A DNA stretch of 64,000 bases from sequence record PP129558. The stretch is one strand, 5' to 3'. A program made the position numbers and the translations under genes. Positions within the stretch are counted from its first letter, which is position 1, and each line of letters opens with the position of its first letter. Below are positions 16,835-57,281 of this stretch, one piece after another. This DNA is from Escherichia phage vB_EcoM_01. The notes under the pieces are model-generated. The model saw only the letters and a list, made by a program, of their open reading frames with translations, was not told the DNA's origin and searched no databases.

Positions 16835-17116
16835 ATGGAACTCGTTCAAGAATTGTATAATGCTTTAGGAGCAAAAGGAAAAGATTGGCCCGAACATGCG
16901 CTTATTGCTATAAGAGACTCCGATGGTGAGATTAAGTTTTCAAGTGTAAGTAAAGAGCACATCGTAGAAACAAAACTGGGTATTTACATGCGTGGAACTT
17001 ATTGCTTATTCAACACCAGAATGGTAGAAGCTCCTGTTATTGAAGATGGAACAAAAGATTGCCCCACAATCGTAACAAAAGCTGAATATGAGAAGTTTTT
17101 CTACGCTAAGGCTTGA
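16835..17116 (+). CDS. Hypothetical protein
   Basis: ORF with AAGGAGG RBS. Confidence 0.45.
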   Translation: MELVQELYNALGAKGKDWPEHALIAIRDSDGEIKFSSVSKEHIVETKLGIYMRGTYCLFNTRMVEAPVIEDGTKDCPTIVTKAEYEKFFYAKA

Positions 17117-17160
17117 CACAGAAACAATACTATAGGATAGTGATCCTATCGTAGCAATAG

Positions 17161-17183
17161 AACCCGCTTCGGCGGGTTTTTTC
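17161..17183 (+). terminator. Rho-independent terminator (CCCGC-TTCG-GCGGG + T6)
   Basis: GC stem, UUCG loop, T run. Confidence 0.65.
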
Positions 17184-17207
17184 ATATCTGTAGCAATAGG
17201 AGGTCGT

Positions 17208-17438
17208 GTGTTAAATAAAATCGAAGAAGGTTGTATGGCATTTTTGGTAGATAACCCGTTTCCCTTTATGGTTAAGGTCCATGTAGGAGAGTATTTAGGT
17301 TATGACGAATGGGATTGTAGTATCAATAGTGAAATGCACCACTACCAACCAACAATACTTAAGACGGATCAAATGGCGCGTATTACAGTAGAGGATGAAT
17401 TGATCATTGAGTTATACGAGAGAGCACTACACAAGTAA
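17208..17438 (+). CDS. Hypothetical protein
   Basis: ORF after AGGAGG. Confidence 0.4.
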   Translation: MLNKIEEGCMAFLVDNPFPFMVKVHVGEYLGYDEWDCSINSEMHHYQPTILKTDQMARITVEDELIIELYERALHK

Positions 17439-17480
17439 GCTAGAACCCACCTAAATCGAACAGAGACGCTCTAAAATAGA

Positions 17481-17509
17481 AAAGGCACCCACTTGGGTGC
17501 CTTTGTTTT
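17481..17509. terminator. Terminator-like hairpin at strand switch (GGCACCC-ACTT-GGGTGCC + T-rich)
   Basis: Between convergent genes. Confidence 0.5.
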
Positions 17510-17780
17510 ATTCTTCGTTAGATTGCGTTTCAGAGGCGTTAAATTCGGTTTCAGTACAGCTTGCTAGGTAACTTATGTTTTGCATCACTACAACTACAGG
17601 TGTTTGAAGTTTATCTTCTAGCCCAGCAGCCACTTGAGCCAAGGCGTTATCAATATTTGATTTCCTAACGCCTGTTCCATGCCCTGTTGCCAAGTAAAGA
17701 TTACCTTCCCCTTTTTGTGTAGCATTGGCAAAGTAGTAAACGTAATGTGCAAGGTAGTAATCACGGATTTCTTCAGTCAT
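17508..17780 (-). CDS. Hypothetical protein
   Basis: ORF with AGGAGA RBS. Confidence 0.4.
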   Translation of the reverse strand: MTEEIRDYYLAHYVYYFANATQKGEGNLYLATGHGTGVRKSNIDNALAQVAAGLEDKLQTPVVVVMQNISYLASCTETEFNASETQSNEE

Positions 17781-17798
17781 TTTATTCTCCTAATAAGA

Positions 17799-17816
17799 AA
17801 GGGGCCGAAGCCCCTT
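17799..17816 (-). promoter_or_regulatory. Intercistronic GGGGCTTCGGCCCC hairpin (UUCG tetraloop), copy 1 of 3
   Basis: Identical 14-nt hairpin also at 29844-29857 and 36012-36025. Confidence 0.5.
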
Positions 17817-17823
17817 GAGTGGT

Positions 17824-18624
17824 TTATTTGTTTAAGTGGTCTTCGACCATTTTAATGAAACCTTCATTGCTGAAGGCTGTTGCAGCTTTTTCTCGGTAAA
17901 CAAAAACTCCACGATCTTCATAGAGAAGTGTTTCTTCGTAATTAACTCCAGGGTTAACTACAACCATTTTTGTTCCGATGTTAAGAGCAGGAAAAAGCTC
18001 CCAGTTAAAATTGATAACTTGATTAGAGCAACCCACTACAATCACCATATCTTGAGCCGTCAAGCCGTCTAAGATGTGGTACATATCGTTATACAATGGG
18101 GCAGTCTCCCCAAAGAACACTACATTGGGCTTCACATACTTGTAATCATCTACATCGATAGCAGCATAGCCAACATCTTTGATGATTCTATTGTCTACGA
18201 TCACTTCAGGCAGGAAGCCGTGAACATGTAGAACATCTTCATGAACAACACCTGCTTGTTCCAGAAGATCATCTACGTTTGTCGTGATGTTGATAACACG
18301 ATCACAGCCGTACTCTTGGAACCACTCTGCGATCTGGTAATGCGCAGCGTTAGGAGACACACTATCCATCTCTACGCGACGTTTATTGTAGAAGTCATGA
18401 GTTTTACGGTAGAGGTTGTATCCCTCTGCATCTAATCCACCAACAGCGCCAGGAACACACTGTTCTTGCTGGTAGCCAGCACGGAAATTGAAAATATCGC
18501 ACACTTCAGAAAGGTCGTATTCATCCCACAAAGCTTTCCCACTATCTGTATCAGTGCGGAAAGTACGTACACCGCTATCGGCGCTTAGACCCGCGCCGCT
18601 GATCACTATTAATCGTCTTGGCAT
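17824..18624 (-). CDS. Sir2-family (sirtuin-like) NAD-binding protein without visible zinc-ribbon module
   Basis: ISGAGLSADSGVRTFR, TNVDDL, HG, VVFFGE, VVGCS motifs; GAGGAGG RBS. Confidence 0.7.
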   Translation of the reverse strand: MPRRLIVISGAGLSADSGVRTFRTDTDSGKALWDEYDLSEVCDIFNFRAGYQQEQCVPGAVGGLDAEGYNLYRKTHDFYNKRRVEMDSVSPNAAHYQIAEWFQEYGCDRVINITTNVDDLLEQAGVVHEDVLHVHGFLPEVIVDNRIIKDVGYAAIDVDDYKYVKPNVVFFGETAPLYNDMYHILDGLTAQDMVIVVGCSNQVINFNWELFPALNIGTKMVVVNPGVNYEETLLYEDRGVFVYREKAATAFSNEGFIKMVEDHLNK

Positions 18625-19112
18625 TCTTCCTCCTCATAATCATCATAATCTTCGTCATCCAAATCGTACACTTCGTCTTGAGAATAACTCACTTCAAAGT
18701 AAATATCAAACTCCGCAAACAAACGTAGAATGTTGGACATGCTGTAATAATTATCGTAGGCAGATTCAGCTTCATAGTAAACATAAAGCAAATGGTTAGC
18801 CTTATCATCTTCCAAATATTTCCCGTCTGCATACGCATAGTCTGCATATGCTTTACCTGCATCTTCCACAAGAGAACGATCAAGCAGAGTAGGAAATGGT
18901 TTCTCTTTTTCTTTTAGTTTGCTCACCAACCAGTGTGCAATATCATGCCAATCTGCATCCTCTCCGCTGAAGCAGCTTGCGACTTCGCCAAACTTGGCAT
19001 CTCCTAAGTCTCCGCTAATAGTGATCATGGTTGAACTATTGTAACCACAAGTCTCGCAATTTGAACAACTGTTGTGCACATGAATTTCTACTTGAAACAT
19101 ATTTCCTCCCAT
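18609..19112 (-). CDS. Hypothetical highly acidic protein, start-overlapped with Sir2-like gene
   Basis: D/E/Y-rich C-terminus; 16-nt overlap with downstream gene. Confidence 0.4.
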   Translation of the reverse strand: MGGNMFQVEIHVHNSCSNCETCGYNSSTMITISGDLGDAKFGEVASCFSGEDADWHDIAHWLVSKLKEKEKPFPTLLDRSLVEDAGKAYADYAYADGKYLEDDKANHLLYVYYEAESAYDNYYSMSNILRLFAEFDIYFEVSYSQDEVYDLDDEDYDDYEEEECQDD

Positions 19113-19114
19113 AA

Positions 19115-19145
19115 AAGAAAAGCCCCCTGAAACAGGAGGCTTTGT
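19115..19145 (-). terminator. Terminator-like hairpin on minus strand
   Basis: GCCTCCTG-TTTC-AGGGGGC + T-rich on minus strand. Confidence 0.45.
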
Positions 19146-19158
19146 TCAGATATCGGCA

Positions 19159-19771
19159 CTATACCAGACTTTCAAGGTATTTGTCAAGGGCTTCTTGATC
19201 ACCTTGACAAACATAGCAACGGAAGTCTTGAGCCGAAGGTTGTTTATTTTCATCCCAGTCCCAATAAACATTACCCTTATAACGTGAACCAGGAAACTCA
19301 AAAGAGGCTGTATGTGTAATGTATCCTGGGCCACCAGTGAAATCACAGAATGAGAATTGAGGATATGCCGCCTTTACTGCCTCAATAAACCAAGCTTTAC
19401 GATCTAAGGCTTCATTGATGCTATATGCATGTCTCTCCATTTCTTCCCAAGTTTTCCAGACACTTCTCTCATCAGGAGAAAAGACAAGCNATTCNGGANG
19501 NGNANNNAGNNGACTCCTCCAGTTTTGAGTAATCAAAAGCAGAATATACCCACCAACCATCCTCCAGTAAGGCTTTGATAGGGACGAAGCCTTTATCAGC
19601 ATATTGATCGAATTGTTTGACACGGTGGCTTGTGCAGTCTTCAAACTCACATTCTAAACGATATGCACCTTTTCGACGAGCCTCAAGACCGTGTGTACTG
19701 AAAATAACAACACTTCCTTCACCATCATTACGATCTACTTGATAAGCAACTACTGGTTTTGAATTTGACAT
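19159..19771 (-). CDS. Hypothetical protein (ORF interrupted by ambiguous bases at 19490-19512)
   Basis: Two table ORFs in same frame across N-containing stretch. Confidence 0.4.
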
Positions 19772-20454
19772 TATTTCTCCTTATCTAGAAGATTGTTAGA
19801 CAAAAACACGGCACGAGCAAAACCACGTGCGGTTAGGGATCTAAGTTGTTTTGTTTTTGCACTAGCTCCACCTAAGCTTTTCCAACCCCAGAAGCAGCCT
19901 ATATGATCTACTGGTTTCTTCACTGGTTGAACAAAACCATTGCCGTGCCAAATACAAGTTTTCTTTGTATACCCATCACGGGTAGGCATTTTAGGATGAA
20001 AGCTTCCTTCCTCTTCAAACAAATACTCACCATACTCATAAGGATCAAAGTAAAAATCGGGTTTACGCCATAAGGTTGAAAGTTTACCTACTGGGTTCTC
20101 AATCATCCAAGGAACATTATATTTGTTACCCAAAGCTTCCACTACACGAATATTAGCTAAAGCTTCATCCAATTCCTCTGTGCTGCGTTCGTGTTTGCTA
20201 CCACTACCTGCTAACATAGTGCAAGGTGGAAATCCAAAAATAATATCGGGTTTAGGTATCCCATGATCTTCAGGGTTGAATGTAGAATCTATCCAGGCAT
20301 TCACATAGGTTATGTTTGGGTGCTCCATCCTAACCTCGTATTTACCGTGATCCCCTTCATCAGCGTTTACACAAAAACACTTGTGACCTGCTTCGGCATA
20401 ACGTAACACCATGATCCCAGATCCGTCAAACATAGACAAAACTGTTTTACTCAT
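19771..20454 (-). CDS. Short DNA (cytosine-5)-methyltransferase-like protein
   Basis: FDGSG (motif I-like), GFPPC (motif IV-like), ENP (motif VI-like). Confidence 0.45.
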   Translation of the reverse strand: MSKTVLSMFDGSGIMVLRYAEAGHKCFCVNADEGDHGKYEVRMEHPNITYVNAWIDSTFNPEDHGIPKPDIIFGFPPCTMLAGSGSKHERSTEELDEALANIRVVEALGNKYNVPWMIENPVGKLSTLWRKPDFYFDPYEYGEYLFEEEGSFHPKMPTRDGYTKKTCIWHGNGFVQPVKKPVDHIGCFWGWKSLGGASAKTKQLRSLTARGFARAVFLSNNLLDKEK

Positions 20455-20860
20455 TACCCCTCCATTCAAGACAAGCCATAACTTTACGCCAATCACTTTC
20501 TGTAAGAAAAATCTCGTTTGCTTTCTTCCACAAATCTAAATCGTGAAGGGTTGGAATACGATATGTTAGTTCACAGAATCTATGCTCTGCTTCTGTAATA
20601 TAACCAAAATGCAGAGCCACATCGTGAAACCAACACCAACCATGCATCTCTCGAACAACATGGTCATGTTGAGACATTATTTTATGCCGTAAACCTAACC
20701 AACAAGGAACAGATACTTTAGTAGTCTTTAATCTGTGTTCAACAGTATTAGAGTATTCAATAATAGCTGTCAGTTTCAATCGTGCTTTTTCTAAATCCTC
20801 ATGCGTCACTTTGAAATAACTTTCTGAAAGATATCCACACATATTAATAACCTCCTTCAA
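20447..20860 (-). CDS. Hypothetical protein
   Basis: ORF. Confidence 0.4.
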   Translation of the reverse strand: MKEVINMCGYLSESYFKVTHEDLEKARLKLTAIIEYSNTVEHRLKTTKVSVPCWLGLRHKIMSQHDHVVREMHGWCWFHDVALHFGYITEAEHRFCELTYRIPTLHDLDLWKKANEIFLTESDWRKVMACLEWRGNE

Positions 20861-21785
20861 AAGGCTTTACTACATGTTGATTAGCTTTAAAACGTTCAAC
20901 ATAGTCGTTTTCGCCCATGTTTTCATATAGCTTAATAACAACATAAAAGTTTTCCCAAGCATATTCCCTAAACCAACCACTAGTGATGGATGTGCAGACT
21001 TTAGATAAAGCCATTATAAAACTTTGCTTAGGGGTTGGACCTCCGATCTCTTCACCGAAAGGAATTTGTGAACGTTCCAAAGCCAAAACACACGCTTCTT
21101 CATAAACACCTAACAGCCGCACATGTTTTGGTTGAGCAAAAAACTTTTCTTTGCTGGTCATAACTTCACTTCCATCTTTCATATAAGATTTATATGCTGG
21201 AGCATCCATTAACGCGATTGCTTCATGGATAGAATCATGATCATAAACATACGGAACCTCGTCACCTTTAAAGAACTCTTTACTTTTTACGTTTAAGTTC
21301 GGATGAGAGTAAGTGTATGTTTCTCTCTCACGCAACTCATAAATACTCTTAAGATTTTCTGGGATCTTTGCGCCCAGTGACCGCATGAAATGAATATCTT
21401 TCATAGTTTTAAAGAAGTGAGGACTATCCTTTTTAAAACGATGACTCATTTTAAGAAGGTAGAGCACATCTAAAGGAGCAACAACATGTCCAGCGTAAGT
21501 TCGACGAACATCATCAGAATCTTCACAATAACTAATCAAAGCTTCTGTGCTATCTCCTTGAGAAGCAATATCGTATTCCAAATGTGCACCAGCTATCATT
21601 TTGACATGGCCTTTGTTCCCTTTACGTTCTACAAGTTCAACAAACTCGTCTTGAGAGAACATTTTTGATAATTCTTCCCACTCTTGTTCTGTACACAGGT
21701 AATCTAAATCTACACAAGGGCGATACAAGTCTTTTCCCATGCCCATAGCATGAATTTGTAATGCACGGCTACCAATTAACACCAT
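20844..21785 (-). CDS. Hypothetical protein with N-terminal GS...DxD motif (possible nucleotidyltransferase fold)
   Basis: LIGSRA ... CVDLD near N-terminus; weak. Confidence 0.35.
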   Translation of the reverse strand: MVLIGSRALQIHAMGMGKDLYRPCVDLDYLCTEQEWEELSKMFSQDEFVELVERKGNKGHVKMIAGAHLEYDIASQGDSTEALISYCEDSDDVRRTYAGHVVAPLDVLYLLKMSHRFKKDSPHFFKTMKDIHFMRSLGAKIPENLKSIYELRERETYTYSHPNLNVKSKEFFKGDEVPYVYDHDSIHEAIALMDAPAYKSYMKDGSEVMTSKEKFFAQPKHVRLLGVYEEACVLALERSQIPFGEEIGGPTPKQSFIMALSKVCTSITSGWFREYAWENFYVVIKLYENMGENDYVERFKANQHVVKPFEGGY

Positions 21786-21845: not shown

Positions 21846-21866
21846 AAAAAACCCGCCGAAGCGGGT
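21846..21866 (-). terminator. Rho-independent terminator on minus strand (CCCGC-TTCG-GCGGG + T6)
   Basis: Same stem as the plus-strand terminator at 17161. Confidence 0.6.
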
Positions 21867-21875
21867 TATTATTTA

Positions 21876-27792: not shown

Positions 27793-27837
27793 TATTAATC
27801 TCCTATGTTTAAGAAATGCCCCCGAAGGGGCAGTTTG

Positions 27838-29824: not shown

Positions 29825-29843
29825 AGTAGCACTCCTTTTAGAA

Positions 29844-29857
29844 GGGGCCGAAGCCCC
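29844..29857 (-). promoter_or_regulatory. Intercistronic GGGGCTTCGGCCCC hairpin, copy 2 of 3
   Basis: Identical to copies at 17803 and 36012. Confidence 0.5.
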
Positions 29858-29861
29858 TTTA

Positions 29862-34904: not shown

Positions 34905-35989
34905 TCGAAGTCAAGCTCCTCATCATCAGAGAGATCTTTGTTAGCTGAATTCAATTTGTAGTTAGTTAACTGAATCTCTTGGGCTGCTGACTGAATCAAA
35001 TCAGGATTCAACCATTTTTCCATCCAAGCTAAAGGACTATGTTTAGGTGCTTTAAACTTGGCTTTCATTTTCAATCGACGATAAATAGGGGCAGCATTGA
35101 AATAAACCCACTGTTTAGACAATTCGGCGTTAAGACCTACAATAAAACGCCCTTCACTAAACAGGTAGTCACACCACTGTTCCTCTTGTTCAACAACAGT
35201 GTCGAGAATCAAAGTCAACTCTTCGATATTGTCTTCGTAAATTTTACGCCAAATTGGGTCATGCATCAATGCATCAATTACAGCATAATCCATCTTAACA
35301 TGCAAGATTTCATCTAGCATAATTTTCTGGATCAGTTTACAAGCCCCAACAAACAGTTGTTGTTCTGCCATAGCAAAAGTAGCAGAGAAGGAAGATATAA
35401 ACTGAATACCTTCTAATCCAATCAGGGCTACCATCCCTTTAAGAATCAGCAGTCGAAGTTCATCGTTAGCTTCAATCAATCCTAGAGCATACTTATGACC
35501 AGCTTCTTCCAACTGACCCATGATATCAGCAATGATACCCATACGATTGAAAATTTTATCATTAATCATAATCTGATTGATGACTTCGATTGGATCTGGA
35601 GTACATTGACGGATTATTTCAGAATACGTTAACGCATGGAGAACTTCCATTTCACTCTGCTTCATCATCATAGCACAGGCTTCATTGTTACTCAAGAATG
35701 GAGAGAACAAAGTGATGATTGATTTTGCAAGAGAATCATTTTCCCATTGGAACGATAAGTTTTTAATCATAACATCATAGTTGTTTTTAGAACAAGCTAC
35801 GAAATCTTTACGTGTCTGATCCAGATTGACTTCATTCTCATCCCAATCTTGTGCTTTTTGAAGTTTGTAGAGTTTGTGCATCTCTGGATAAGTTACGTTA
35901 ACAGAATCAAAGATCCCTAATTGTTCCCCTAAAAATACTGGATATTTTCCTGTTTTGTAAACTTCATTGTGTAAATTAATTGCTGCCAT
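34901..35989 (-). CDS. nrdB: Ribonucleotide reductase small (beta) subunit
   Basis: Size and position next to nrdA; assigned mainly by context and family resemblance. Confidence 0.75.
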   Translation of the reverse strand: MAAINLHNEVYKTGKYPVFLGEQLGIFDSVNVTYPEMHKLYKLQKAQDWDENEVNLDQTRKDFVACSKNNYDVMIKNLSFQWENDSLAKSIITLFSPFLSNNEACAMMMKQSEMEVLHALTYSEIIRQCTPDPIEVINQIMINDKIFNRMGIIADIMGQLEEAGHKYALGLIEANDELRLLILKGMVALIGLEGIQFISSFSATFAMAEQQLFVGACKLIQKIMLDEILHVKMDYAVIDALMHDPIWRKIYEDNIEELTLILDTVVEQEEQWCDYLFSEGRFIVGLNAELSKQWVYFNAAPIYRRLKMKAKFKAPKHSPLAWMEKWLNPDLIQSAAQEIQLTNYKLNSANKDLSDDEELDFE

Positions 35990-36011
35990 TTAAAATTCTC
36001 CTCAATAAAAA

Positions 36012-36025
36012 GGGGCCGAAGCCCC
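36012..36025 (-). promoter_or_regulatory. Intercistronic GGGGCTTCGGCCCC hairpin between nrdA and nrdB, copy 3 of 3
   Basis: Hairpin + T-run then GAGGAG RBS and nrdB ATG; duplicated at 37013-37026 by assembly. Confidence 0.5.
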
Positions 36026-36123
36026 TAGTTTCATCACATCTTGCAAGCTTCACAACCACCATCAGAATCTTCTTGTGCTAAAGAGTCTGCTGATTTTGTT
36101 CTACTATTAAGGTAATACAATGA

Positions 36124-36975
36124 NNNNNNNNNNNNNNNNNNNNNNNNNNNNNNNNNNNNNNNNNNNNNNNNNNNNNNNNNNNNNNNNNNNNNNNNNNNNN
36201 NNNNNNNNNNNNNNNNNNNNNNNNNNNNNNNNNNNNNNNNNNNNNNNNNNNNNNNNNNNNNNNNNNNNNNNNNNNNNNNNNNNNNNNNNNNNNNNNNNNN
36301 NNNNNNNNNNNNNNNNNNNNNNNNNNNNNNNNNNNNNNNNNNNNNNNNNNNNNNNNNNNNNNNNNNNNNNNNNNNNNNNNNNNNNNNNNNNNNNNNNNNN
36401 NNNNNNNNNNNNNNNNNNNNNNNNNNNNNNNNNNNNNNNNNNNNNNNNNNNNNNNNNNNNNNNNNNNNNNNNNNNNNNNNNNNNNNNNNNNNNNNNNNNN
36501 NNNNNNNNNNNNNNNNNNNNNNNNNNNNNNNNNNNNNNNNNNNNNNNNNNNNNNNNNNNNNNNNNNNNNNNNNNNNNNNNNNNNNNNNNNNNNNNNNNNN
36601 NNNNNNNNNNNNNNNNNNNNNNNNNNNNNNNNNNNNNNNNNNNNNNNNNNNNNNNNNNNNNNNNNNNNNNNNNNNNNNNNNNNNNNNNNNNNNNNNNNNN
36701 NNNNNNNNNNNNNNNNNNNNNNNNNNNNNNNNNNNNNNNNNNNNNNNNNNNNNNNNNNNNNNNNNNNNNNNNNNNNNNNNNNNNNNNNNNNNNNNNNNNN
36801 NNNNNNNNNNNNNNNNNNNNNNNNNNNNNNNNNNNNNNNNNNNNNNNNNNNNNNNNNNNNNNNNNNNNNNNNNNNNNNNNNNNNNNNNNNNNNNNNNNNN
36901 NNNNNNNNNNNNNNNNNNNNNNNNNNNNNNNNNNNNNNNNNNNNNNNNNNNNNNNNNNNNNNNNNNNNNNNNNNN
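36124..36975. other. Assembly gap (N run) flanked by 148-bp exact duplication
   Basis: 35976-36123 equals 36976-37123. Confidence 0.8.
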
Positions 36976-37034
36976 ATTAATTGCTGCCATTTAAAATTCT
37001 CCTCAATAAAAAGGGGCCGAAGCCCCTAGTTTCA

Positions 37035-39275
37035 TCACATCTTGCAAGCTTCACAACCACCATCAGAATCTTCTTGTGCTAAAGAGTCTGCTGATTTTGT
37101 TCTACTATTAAGGTAATACAATGATTTGCCACCCAGTCTAGCAAAATTCAAAATAAACTGCATCTCAGCTTTCACGGATAAACGTCCACCTACCAATTTA
37201 GAATAATCTAGCCAAGAATCACAAGAAATTCCTTGGTCAGTAAACTTGGTAAAGATACCATACATTTCTGCAAGGTCTTTAGCCGGAGTATCCCAGGCAG
37301 ATTGGTAGAACATTTTCAGTTTTTCGTAGTCTGGAACAATAAATAATACACTACCTTTCTGACTTTGTTTATACATAATGGTATCACGAACAGGATACAG
37401 AGAGTTAGTAGTATTGCTTACCAAACTGCTGGACTCATTAGGTGCAATAGCAGCCAATACACTGTTACGGATACCACCTTGTTCAATGATTTCAGCACGT
37501 AAGCCTTCCCAGTCCATTTTAAGATCAAAATTACCGATACTATCTACTGTTTTAGCATAAGTGTCAATTGGTAGCCAACCTTGAGGCCATTTGGTCTTAT
37601 CGATCCATTCTGCATTACCTTTTTCCTTAGCCAGACGCAGAGAGGCTTTTGCCAACCAGAAGTAATGACGTTCTGCAAGTTCATGCATTAATTTTTTAGC
37701 ATAAGCATCTGAATAATTTACAAAATTACTTGCCAAGTAATGCGCTAAGTTTGTAATGCCTACACCAATAGATCTACGTGCTTTAGCAGTTATTTCGTTA
37801 TGTTTAAATGGATAATCCATTGTTTCAATAACGTTGTCAATTGTCAATACAGTGTAGTATGCAACATCTTCATATTCTTCAGGTAATACACGACCAGCAA
37901 CAATAGAAGATAAGAAGCATAAAGCCAATTCTTGATCTTCTGTATTCTCACCAGTAAAGAGATCCGGCATACTGTGGAAAGCTTTAGTTGGTAAGAAGAT
38001 CTCTTGACACAGGTTTGATTGATACACCGTATCCAGGAAAGGTGTATGGTTGTTAACGTTGTCAGCAAAGAACATGTAAATACGTCCTGTTTCTGCACGT
38101 TGAACAATAATCTCTGTCAGAAGATCACGAGCCTTAACAAATTTTTTCTTAATGCGACGACGGCTTACTTTGTCATAAACTGCATCAAACTCTTCTTCAC
38201 TTTTATACAAAGCTTCATAAAGTTCTGGAGCATCATCACAACTAACTAACATCCAATCTTCGTTTTTTGCTGCTCGACGCAAGAATGAACGGTTAACAAC
38301 AATAGAATAATCCAGTTTGTCTACTCGTTTATCTATAGGTGTTGTTGGATTCTTCAGTCGAATCAGATCGTCGAAGTCTGGTTCAAGTATGGTAAAGGTA
38401 ACTGTAGCACTACCTCCACGGCTTGCTTGCTTCGAAGCTCCAACACTATCTTCCATCCATTTCAGATATGGAAGAAGACCACCATGAATAATACGATTAT
38501 TCTTAACACCTTGACCTGTGGCACGAGTTTGAAGATTAACACCAATACCTGCGTTATTTAACGTATACTCATGAGCTAAGTAATTAGCAATGGCTAAAGA
38601 CTCTGCTGTATCGTCTGCGCGGAATAAACAACAAGACGCACTTCCTTTGATTGGAGTTCGTAGAGTTGTCAGATACGGCGATGGCAGATTAATCTTAAGA
38701 TCGCTAACATAAGTATAAAGTTTTTTAATATCTTCTATACGGCGTTCTTTTGGTTGGATCTCCATAACCTTCATTGCGATACCAATGAAAAGAAACTGTG
38801 GAGACTCATGCACAACATCGTTTACTGCATCTCGAATAAGATATTTATCTACCATCTGACGTAAAACAGAATAACCATAAGTTAGATTTTTATTATGCTT
38901 TACAATCTTACCGATTTCTTTGATCTCTTCATCAGTATAATCCATTTTAGCCCAATGTCCACGTTCTACCATATCATGATAAAAGGTATTCAGTGAAGGG
39001 ATACTGTGGTATCCCCCATGAGCCTGTTTGTAAATCATACCCAGAAGAAGTCTTCCTGCCATATCACTGTAAGCTTGTGTTTTCTTGTCAATACACGCTG
39101 CAATCATTGCTTTATGCAGATCACGTGTAGACACACCGTCATAACACCGCTTCACAGCTTCTAATTCAATTTCAGACCAGTTTAGTTTACCTGCTGCAAA
39201 TTCAGACCACTTGCGAAGTTTTTCTGGATTAAACTCCTCTGTCTTACCGTTAGATTTAGTTACAAAACGAATCAA
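37035..39275 (-). CDS. nrdA: Ribonucleotide reductase large (alpha) subunit, class I
   Basis: 746 aa; multiple conserved Cys including C-terminal pair; context with nrdB and glutaredoxin. Confidence 0.8.
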   Translation of the reverse strand: MIRFVTKSNGKTEEFNPEKLRKWSEFAAGKLNWSEIELEAVKRCYDGVSTRDLHKAMIAACIDKKTQAYSDMAGRLLLGMIYKQAHGGYHSIPSLNTFYHDMVERGHWAKMDYTDEEIKEIGKIVKHNKNLTYGYSVLRQMVDKYLIRDAVNDVVHESPQFLFIGIAMKVMEIQPKERRIEDIKKLYTYVSDLKINLPSPYLTTLRTPIKGSASCCLFRADDTAESLAIANYLAHEYTLNNAGIGVNLQTRATGQGVKNNRIIHGGLLPYLKWMEDSVGASKQASRGGSATVTFTILEPDFDDLIRLKNPTTPIDKRVDKLDYSIVVNRSFLRRAAKNEDWMLVSCDDAPELYEALYKSEEEFDAVYDKVSRRRIKKKFVKARDLLTEIIVQRAETGRIYMFFADNVNNHTPFLDTVYQSNLCQEIFLPTKAFHSMPDLFTGENTEDQELALCFLSSIVAGRVLPEEYEDVAYYTVLTIDNVIETMDYPFKHNEITAKARRSIGVGITNLAHYLASNFVNYSDAYAKKLMHELAERHYFWLAKASLRLAKEKGNAEWIDKTKWPQGWLPIDTYAKTVDSIGNFDLKMDWEGLRAEIIEQGGIRNSVLAAIAPNESSSLVSNTTNSLYPVRDTIMYKQSQKGSVLFIVPDYEKLKMFYQSAWDTPAKDLAEMYGIFTKFTDQGISCDSWLDYSKLVGGRLSVKAEMQFILNFARLGGKSLYYLNSRTKSADSLAQEDSDGGCEACKM

Positions 39276-46404: not shown

Positions 46405-46461
46405 ATATTTCCTCCTATTATTTAACTCTCACAATAACCGCCCCGAAGGGCGGCTTACAGA

Positions 46462-51694: not shown

Positions 51695-51912
51695 TAAGTT
51701 TCTCCTTAATAGTGAACACGAATCATTTTAATACCATAACGCAGCATGGATTCTTTTGCAAGCATATAACACGTTGCGCATAATGACCCTCACCAATCCA
51801 GGTAAGAGGTTGGTAACAAATGTTCTGATCAATACTACTCATTAAGTTTCTCCTTAATAGTGAACACGAATCATTTTAATACCATAACGCAGCATGGATT
51901 CTTTTGCAAGCA
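51619..51912. repeat. Exact tandem duplication of ~147 bp (probable assembly artifact)
   Basis: 51619-51765 identical to 51766-51912. Confidence 0.7.
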
Positions 51913-57193: not shown

Positions 57194-57281
57194 GGTGAGT
57201 TAATTCCGTAGGGGTAGCGGGGCAGACTGTAAATCTGTTATCATTGCGATTCGGGTGGTTCGACTCCATCACTCACCACCA
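57194..57281 (+). tRNA. tRNA-Tyr (anticodon GTA), long variable arm
   Basis: Acceptor GGTGAGT/ACTCACC, loop CTGTAAA. Confidence 0.6.

Follow-up and report, generated by a model that had tools for sequence, protein, structure and literature searches.

Identical short UUCG hairpins at three gene ends of a phAPEC8-like Escherichia phage are probably ordinary intrinsic-terminator-type hairpins

A repeated GGGGCUUCGGCCCC stem-loop is found on the transcribed (minus) strand in the intergenic spaces at the 3' ends of a Sir2-like gene, a lysozyme gene and nrdA in the window, that is, in the whole stretch of 64,000 nucleotides of Escherichia phage vB_EcoM_01 (PP129558) that was analysed. These are most probably ordinary hairpins of the intrinsic-terminator type located at the 3' ends of the upstream cistrons, those after the Sir2-like gene and nrdA (sites 1 and 3) being leaky terminators and that after the lysozyme gene (site 2) a stability or processing hairpin. 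The element is of a known kind that is already annotated in relatives. The one feature slightly out of the ordinary is a hairpin at site 2 that is conserved without a U-tract.

Genomic context

Positions 17000-21000 of the window are 99.3% identical to Escherichia phage phAPEC8 and 99.5% identical to Dompiswa phage TSP7_1 (126 related records), and the match to phAPEC8 places the window in Phapecoctavirus (Stephanstirmvirinae), a virulent myovirus of ~150 kb. Gene names were carried over from the 99% identical phAPEC8 record, and the gene contexts given in an earlier, sequence-only reading of this DNA (Sir2-like/next gene, lysozyme/phoH, nrdA/nrdB) agree with this annotation. The genes are arranged in a plus-strand block up to ~17.45 kb, a minus-strand block from 17.5 to ~55 kb, and a further plus-strand block that begins at ~55.5 kb and holds a tRNA cluster. 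The window holds many N runs and is therefore a consensus assembly or a masked one. For the comparison of hairpins, ASO2A (MZ726793), a relative that is ~95% identical, was rebuilt as a complete genome.

An Rfam scan of the whole window at the gathering threshold returned tRNAs only, with no family for the UUCG hairpins. A twelfth tRNA-like sequence in the tRNA cluster (57194-57278, plus strand) was recognized by the Rfam tRNA model at 39 bits, and ARAGORN made no call there. A promoter scan of the window gave 67 matches against 50.5 +/- 9 expected, which is too close to background to serve as evidence.

Position and structure of the repeated hairpins

Site 1: 17799-17816, minus strand; AAGGGGC-UUCG-GCCCCUU, which is the 18-nt AAGGGGCUUCGGCCCCUU; 3' of the Sir2-like gene
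Site 2: 29842-29859, minus strand; AAGGGGC-UUCG-GCCCCUU, the same 18 nt as site 1; 3' of the lysozyme gene
Site 3: 36011-36026, minus strand; AGGGGC-UUCG-GCCCCU; 3' of nrdA

The 14-nt hairpin GGGGCTTCGGCCCC has four exact copies in the window (17801-17814, 29844-29857, 36012-36025 and 37013-37026), all on the minus strand, versus 0 matches in dinucleotide-preserving shuffles, and a search of the window with up to 2 mismatches allowed found no further copy. The sequence-only reading had reported the same 14-nt hairpin at three intercistronic positions plus the copy at 37013-37026, with the UUCG loop on the minus strand; the four exact matches and their location on the transcribed strand bear this out. 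Its coordinates were right for sites 2 and 3, and those for site 1 (17803-17816) were 2 nt off, the true position being 17801-17814.

The stem at all three sites consists of 5 G-C pairs, to which 1-2 A-U pairs are added, under a C(UUCG)G cap. Predicted free energies are -9.6 kcal/mol for the core and -11.2 to -12.1 kcal/mol for the extended hairpins (-12.1 kcal/mol for extended site 1). The hairpin begins 7 nt after the stop codon of the Sir2-like gene, 2 nt after that of the lysozyme gene and 7 nt after that of nrdA, and the distance from the hairpin to the next ATG is 20-27 nt at the three sites. Site 1 is followed by UUUCUUAUU-AGGAG-N6 and the ATG of the next gene (17780), site 2 by UUCUAAA-AGGAG (AAGGAG)-N7 and the phoH ATG (~29822), and site 3 by UUUUUAUUG-AGGAG-N8 and the nrdB ATG (35989). 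Pairing of the 3' arm of site 2 with the phoH Shine-Dalgarno sequence was considered by hand as an alternative structure and rejected, as it offers at most 4 weak pairs against a hairpin of -12 kcal/mol.

Sites 1 and 3 are alike over 32 nt at 88% identity, a stretch that includes the hairpin, the U-tract and the Shine-Dalgarno sequence. Site 2 has the hairpin alone in common with them, so that similarity among the copies spans 18-20 nt, and no extension of the repeat upstream of the hairpin was found among the window copies. The likeness of sites 1 and 3 may reflect either an old duplication or convergence on the same functional parts.

The fourth copy lies within the following feature:
36124-37124: a run of 852 N (36124-36975), then positions 35976-36123 (148 bp) once more without any change, displaced by exactly 1001 nt

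The nrdB-hairpin-nrdA junction is unbroken in at least 47 complete phage records and, among the matches listed, occupies a single place in each of 25. Because the copy at 37013-37026 sits inside the 148-bp repeat beside the N run and complete relatives hold the junction once, it is an assembly or masking artefact, just as the earlier phrase "duplicated by assembly" had it. From nrdA onward, window coordinates equal those of Schickermooser (MK373788) minus 1; this match and the 1001-nt offset suggest an artefact of reference-guided or tiled assembly.

The position of site 2 also bears on the annotation of phoH. A long phoH ORF that starts at ATG 29875, as in ASO2A, spans hairpin 2 and overlaps the lysozyme gene. 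It was rejected: an in-frame TAA is present in relatives with a GUAA loop, and AAGGAG-N7-ATG is kept in all relatives compared. The short start (~29822) is thus likely to be the true one.

Downstream U-tracts and existing terminator annotation

The tails that follow the hairpins were scored in the style of TransTermHP and compared with random tails, with the following results:
Site 1 tail: score -4.45; 6 U in the first 8 nt; 0.6% of random tails as good or better
Site 2 tail: score -3.29; 3 U in the first 8 nt; 7% of random tails as good or better
Site 3 tail: score -5.06; 7 U in the first 8 nt; 0.1% of random tails as good or better

U-rich tails follow sites 1 and 3 in all relatives compared, and the site 2 tail is poor in every one. 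Terminator predictor results were taken from the annotation of public records. In ASO2A (MZ726793), the identical sequence of site 1 is annotated as a rho-independent terminator (TranstermHPv2.09 and WebGeSTer), as is the homologue of site 3, which has the loop UUCA (same predictors). In Schickermooser (MK373788), the 14-nt hairpin of site 3 is annotated as a putative transcriptional terminator (ARNOLD, -13.90). Site 2 is absent as an annotated terminator from all three records examined (phAPEC8, ASO2A and Schickermooser), and a consensus terminator scan of the window listed the minus-strand hairpins with the exception of site 2.

The sequence-only reading had described each hairpin as followed by a U-rich stretch, AGGAG and an ATG, which is accurate at sites 1 and 3 and weakly true at site 2 (UUCUAAA, 3 U in 8). 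Its treatment of the three sites as equivalent therefore fails, since site 2 has no U-tract in any relative and no terminator annotation in the three records.

A recent model of termination, the HUB model, assigns the bubble-edge dinucleotides GC to -11/-10 and RU to -2/-1, and GC at -11/-10 was important for strong termination in an in vitro study (bioRxiv 10.64898/2026.05.29.728758). The stems in the window end in CC, which makes -10C possible and -11G impossible, with a phasing that depends on the termination point. In the tails of sites 1 and 3, an A-U step occurs at 6-8 nt, with the same dependence of its phasing on the termination point.

Conservation of stems and loops in relatives

The relatives compared were IMG/VR loci with 69-92% identity in the flanking proteins. 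In these relatives, all three sites retain the GGGGC/GCCCC stem, and the loops found in the window and relatives are as follows:
Site 1 (Sir2-like gene): UUCG, UACG, GAAA
Site 2 (lysozyme gene): UUCG, GCAA, GUAA
Site 3 (nrdA): UUCG, GAAA

Loop changes in the IMG/VR relatives are confined to the hyperstable UNCG and GNRA tetraloops, and the sites vary independently within one genome. Distant relatives have another GC stem with a U-tract at the same position (L017 after the Sir2-like gene, L033/34 after nrdA), and in still more distant relatives the genes overlap and there is no hairpin. As the stems are invariant among close relatives, sites 1-3 show no compensatory covariation there and formal counts would be uninformative; what supports the structure is the classes of loop and the turnover of stems in distant relatives. 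This pattern of conservation is the one predicted by selection for a small, very stable hairpin and argues against recognition of the loop sequence.

The hairpins are linked to the upstream gene: they stay in place when the downstream gene is swapped or an ORF is inserted. In one relative (L005), the gene after the Sir2-like gene is replaced, and the hairpin and U-tract stay. In phAPEC8, ASO2A and four IMG/VR loci (L028-31), nrdB is separated from the nrdA hairpin by an extra ORF of ~110 codons. This ORF (L001 39040-39360) is absent from the window (35989-36011), Schickermooser and at least 47 other records. The borders of the insertion or deletion are Shine-Dalgarno-like repeats, GAGGAGGATT and GGAGGATTT.

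Other hairpins in the window and in ASO2A

UUCG is the commonest loop among the GC-rich perfect tetraloop hairpins of the window, where four further UUCG hairpins were identified:
21850-21867, minus strand: AACCCGC-UUCG-GCGGGUU, then U6; annotated terminator in phAPEC8 and ASO2A
17161-17178, plus strand, in the plus-transcribed block: AACCCGC-UUCG-GCGGGUU, then U6; annotated terminator in ASO2A
27817-27832, minus strand, between two minus-strand genes: UGCCCC-UUCG-GGGGCA; annotated terminator in ASO2A
46438-46453, minus strand, between two minus-strand genes: CCGCCC-UUCG-GGGCGG; annotated terminator in ASO2A (record 51767-51795)

Related UUCG hairpins had been pointed out in the sequence-only reading and do exist; two of them were given coordinates that are 4-6 nt off, and the plus-strand hairpin at 17161-17178 was missed. 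The hexamer CTTCGG occurs 18 times in sense and 7 times in antisense orientation in the window, with ~8 expected for each. The copies embedded in hairpins are all in sense (7/7) and all intergenic (7/7), and the non-hairpin hexamers (11 sense, 7 antisense) are scattered. In the complete ASO2A genome, the UUCG hairpins (7/7) and the GNRA hairpins (5/5) are likewise all in sense orientation, and no hairpin with the reverse-complement loop CGAA was found on its transcribed strand.

A second reused hairpin in the window is AACCCGCUUCGGCGGGUU, which is present at 17161-17178 (plus strand) and 21850-21867 (minus strand) and is in sense orientation at both. The tail of the latter copy runs directly into a promoter-like site, TTGACA-N17-TAAACT with an extended-10 TG (21844-21816), which gives a terminator-promoter pair. 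At the convergent junction of the plus and minus blocks, a 10-bp palindromic hairpin (17481-17504), AAAGGCACCC-ACUU-GGGUGCCUUU, is followed by a T-rich tail on either strand; ASO2A annotates this hairpin as a bidirectional terminator, which it probably is.

Two additional elements were observed in ASO2A. One of these, outside the window (105600-105617; L037 43600-43617), is an AAGGGGC-N4-GCCCCUU hairpin immediately 3' of the DNA polymerase gene; this hairpin has the loop UUCU and a poor U-tract, UAUAGGAG, and is annotated as a terminator. The other is the hairpin GCGGCAAUGGUGCCGC, which occurs five times in the early-gene regions (567-582, 1798-1813, 146672-146687, 150032-150047 and 151469-151486; L036, L038). 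Several of its copies adjoin annotated sigma-70-like promoters, an arrangement reminiscent of promoter/stem-loop cassettes. A search of the window for GCGGCAAUGGUGCCGC with up to 2 mismatches returned no match.

Occurrence of the 18-mer in other viruses and in bacteria

An IMG/VR scan for AAGGGGC-N4-GCCCCTT returned at least 120 loci. Among the 123 IMG/VR sites listed, the loop is UUCG in 71, another UNCG loop in 7 and a GNRA loop in 21, so that UNCG and GNRA loops together make up 80% of these sites versus 9.4% by chance. Nucleotide similarity to this phage was seen in 3 of the 120 IMG/VR loci listed. The exact 18-mer AAGGGGCTTCGGCCCCTT is present in at least 71 viral contigs, nearly all of which are unrelated to this phage, and lies within 45 nt of the 3' end of a sense ORF (at least 60 codons) in 67 of the 71 matches listed.

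The bacterial scan was made for exact AAGGGGCTTCGGCCCCTT with one genome per species and gave at least 120 genomes. Among the matches listed, the hosts include Yersinia, Citrobacter, Escherichia, Pseudomonas, Bacteroidota, Firmicutes and others, and the 18-mer is located within 45 nt 3' of a sense ORF in 102 of 120. The bacterial copies listed have a mean of 6.2 U in the next 8 nt, with 6-7 U in most, and site 2 with its 3 U in 8 falls in the low tail of this distribution.

The location of the 18-mer 3' of genes across viruses and bacteria therefore marks it as a generic, repeatedly evolved terminator hairpin and not as a private phage element. The earlier suggestion of a special conserved element reused by this phage is not supported, given these occurrences and the terminator annotation of sites 1 and 3 in close relatives. 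The three copies are identical because a near-minimal hairpin of maximal stability was either inherited or reached by convergence, and no phage-specific recognition sequence is implied.

Proposed mechanism and alternative explanations

A literature search for transcript mapping (3' ends, RNA-seq) in Phapecoctavirus found none. For these hairpins, the analysis shows the sequence, the strand and position, the predicted stability, how they are conserved, how widespread they are and how public records annotate them; from this we infer termination, a level of read-through and stabilisation at these sites. The same applies to the proposed effect of the hairpins on expression ratios. The sequence-only reading had offered an attenuator or a processing/stability hairpin at gene 3' ends; as to type and place, this proposal is favoured by the strand, the spacing from the stop codons, the link to the upstream gene, the loop classes and the U-tracts.

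Sites 1 and 3 are most likely intrinsic terminators that act part of the time and leave a protective 3' hairpin. Host RNA polymerase would pause on the U-tract of these sites, the hairpin would fold in the exit channel of the paused polymerase, and a fraction of the complexes would release RNA ~7-9 nt downstream of the hairpin, just before the next Shine-Dalgarno sequence. RNAs that are terminated or processed in this way would keep a 3' hairpin that blocks 3'-to-5' exonucleases, and the net result would be more of the upstream product than of the downstream product. Termination is expected to be partial for several reasons: the 20-27 nt to the next ATG leave no room for a promoter and nrdB is needed alongside nrdA; a ribosome on the stop codon would cover the hairpin with its footprint; and the stem ends in CC, not in the GC that is optimal for termination. 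Proximity of a stop codon is reported to alter termination efficiency, and a 3' terminator hairpin to raise expression of the upstream gene (PMC9257418).

For site 2, the most likely role is mainly protection of the mRNA 3' end or a barrier to processing, or else a very weak terminator. A stability or processing hairpin is favoured at this site because it is without a U-tract in any relative. One could go further and regard site 2 as one of a class of non-terminating intercistronic hairpins at which a phage or host RNA factor sets the lysozyme:PhoH ratio through sequence-specific recognition of the GGGGC stem, a proposal that we consider highly improbable. If it were true, processing at site 2 could for instance be coupled to the RNA ligase or nucleotidyltransferase genes that the phage itself carries, and the invariant GGGGC stem at 3-4 sites would signify sequence-specific recognition beyond stability.

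A role in mRNA stability or processing may also be extended to all three hairpins, with no meaningful termination at any of them. Transcription would then read through, the A/U-rich spacer would be cleaved and a 3' exonuclease would halt at the hairpin, so that the upstream cistron outlasts the downstream one. Several observations fit this explanation, namely a site 2 that keeps its hairpin and never has a U-tract, a gap to the ATG that is too short for promoters of the downstream genes, very short stems inside the footprint of the terminating ribosome, and the gain in upstream expression that a 3' hairpin confers (PMC9257418). However, the conserved U-tracts at sites 1 and 3 are well above composition, ARNold or TransTermHP/WebGeSTer calls terminators at both sites in the records of relatives, and most of the bacterial 18-mers listed are followed by 6-7 U in 8 nt, which makes an explanation by stability alone rather unlikely.

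It is very unlikely that a factor of the phage or the host, for instance an RNA-binding regulator or a nuclease, recognizes the GGGGC/GCCCC stem by its sequence, or that this stem marks a boundary of DNA recombination. Such a site would agree with a stem that is invariant at three sites in 4-5 lineages while loops and flanks vary, with the fourth AAGGGGC-N4-GCCCCUU hairpin 3' of the DNA polymerase gene in ASO2A, and with the 32-nt likeness of sites 1 and 3 at 88%. Gene content also shifts directly behind the hairpin, both in L005 and between nrdA and nrdB, but the nrdA-nrdB insertion or deletion is bordered by the Shine-Dalgarno-like repeats and not by the hairpin. A phage-specific factor cannot explain an 18-mer whose occurrences 3' of genes take in at least 71 viral contigs, nearly all unrelated, and bacteria of many phyla (at least 120 genomes); other UUCG hairpins of the same genome have different stems, and purifying selection on a 5-bp stem accounts for the invariance. 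A role at the DNA level is contradicted by the strict strand bias, and the reading as a DNA-level element or mobile cassette was ruled out on account of this sense-strand bias and because the repeat is short and the 18-mer ubiquitous. Chance or base composition, with no function at all, might be considered for an element just 14-18 nt long. This is scarcely credible and has already been refuted by the absence of matches in shuffles against 4 observed, by copies that are all intergenic and in sense, and by conservation in relatives with changes restricted to tetraloop classes.

With the hairpins taken as ordinary terminator-type elements, the main gain is in the operon punctuation of phAPEC8-like phages, to which they add probable transcript ends or damping points and the right phoH start, with little weight beyond annotation. 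AAGGGGCUUCGGCCCCUU is a generic optimum at gene ends in phages and bacteria, and identical short hairpins within one genome need neither a common ancestry nor a dedicated regulatory system. Phage engineering could draw on the hairpins as compact terminator parts of natural origin that are probably leaky.

Comparison with known systems

Sites 1 and 3 resemble the rho-independent terminators known from E. coli and its phages in having a short GC hairpin with A-tract and U-tract flanks and a stable tetraloop, only a few nt past the stop codon. Unlike typical terminators of this kind, the stems in the window are very short (5 G-C and 1-2 A-U pairs) and end in CC, the hairpins are inside operons with no downstream promoter, and site 2 has no U-tract. 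Their location within operons without a downstream promoter implies that the hairpins must be leaky.

The REP/BIME elements of enterobacteria are intercistronic palindromes that act as mRNA 3' stabilisers (e.g., malE-malF). REP units are imperfect palindromes of ~35-40 nt with a consensus of their own and hundreds of copies in the host. The hairpins of the window resemble them as intercistronic structures able to shield the upstream cistron from 3' exonucleases, which is the best analogy for site 2. Membership in this family was rejected, as the element is 18 nt long and lacks the REP consensus, with similarity among copies over 18-20 nt (32 nt for sites 1 and 3). The PeSL cassettes of T4-type phages, attributed to Arbiol et al. 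in 2010, are reportedly repeats of ~50-70 bp that combine an early promoter with a stem-loop. A cassette of this type was also rejected, since no promoter fits the 20-27 nt gap between hairpin and ATG and the repeat has no upstream extension.

In phiKZ, 61 terminators were mapped by ONT-cappable-seq, and one common motif was found (PMC10914365). The reuse of near-identical GC hairpins with a short T-rich motif at the gene ends of one genome is similar to the situation in the window. The phiKZ motif is longer, phage-specific and experimentally mapped, whereas the 18-mer is generic, occurs across bacteria and is known from sequence.

The C(UUCG)G hairpins of T4 provide a further parallel. T4 and other phages are described as rich in intergenic CUUCGG hairpins (PMC8948821, citing Tuerk 1988; PMC4371310), and the roles associated with the T4 hairpins are transcript stability and 3'-end formation. 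The three sites and the four further window hairpins belong to the C(UUCG)G class, being closed by C-G when read on the RNA strand. As in T4 (Tuerk et al. 1988, PNAS 85:1364, as presented in PMC4371310 and PMC8948821), the host genome is that of a large virulent coliphage, and CUUCGG is set on a GC stem, is intergenic, lies on the mRNA strand and is present in several copies. Nothing of substance differs between the two; the lineages are Stephanstirmvirinae for the window phage and Tevenvirinae for T4, and in relatives of the window phage the UUCG loop is exchanged for a GNRA loop at the corresponding positions.
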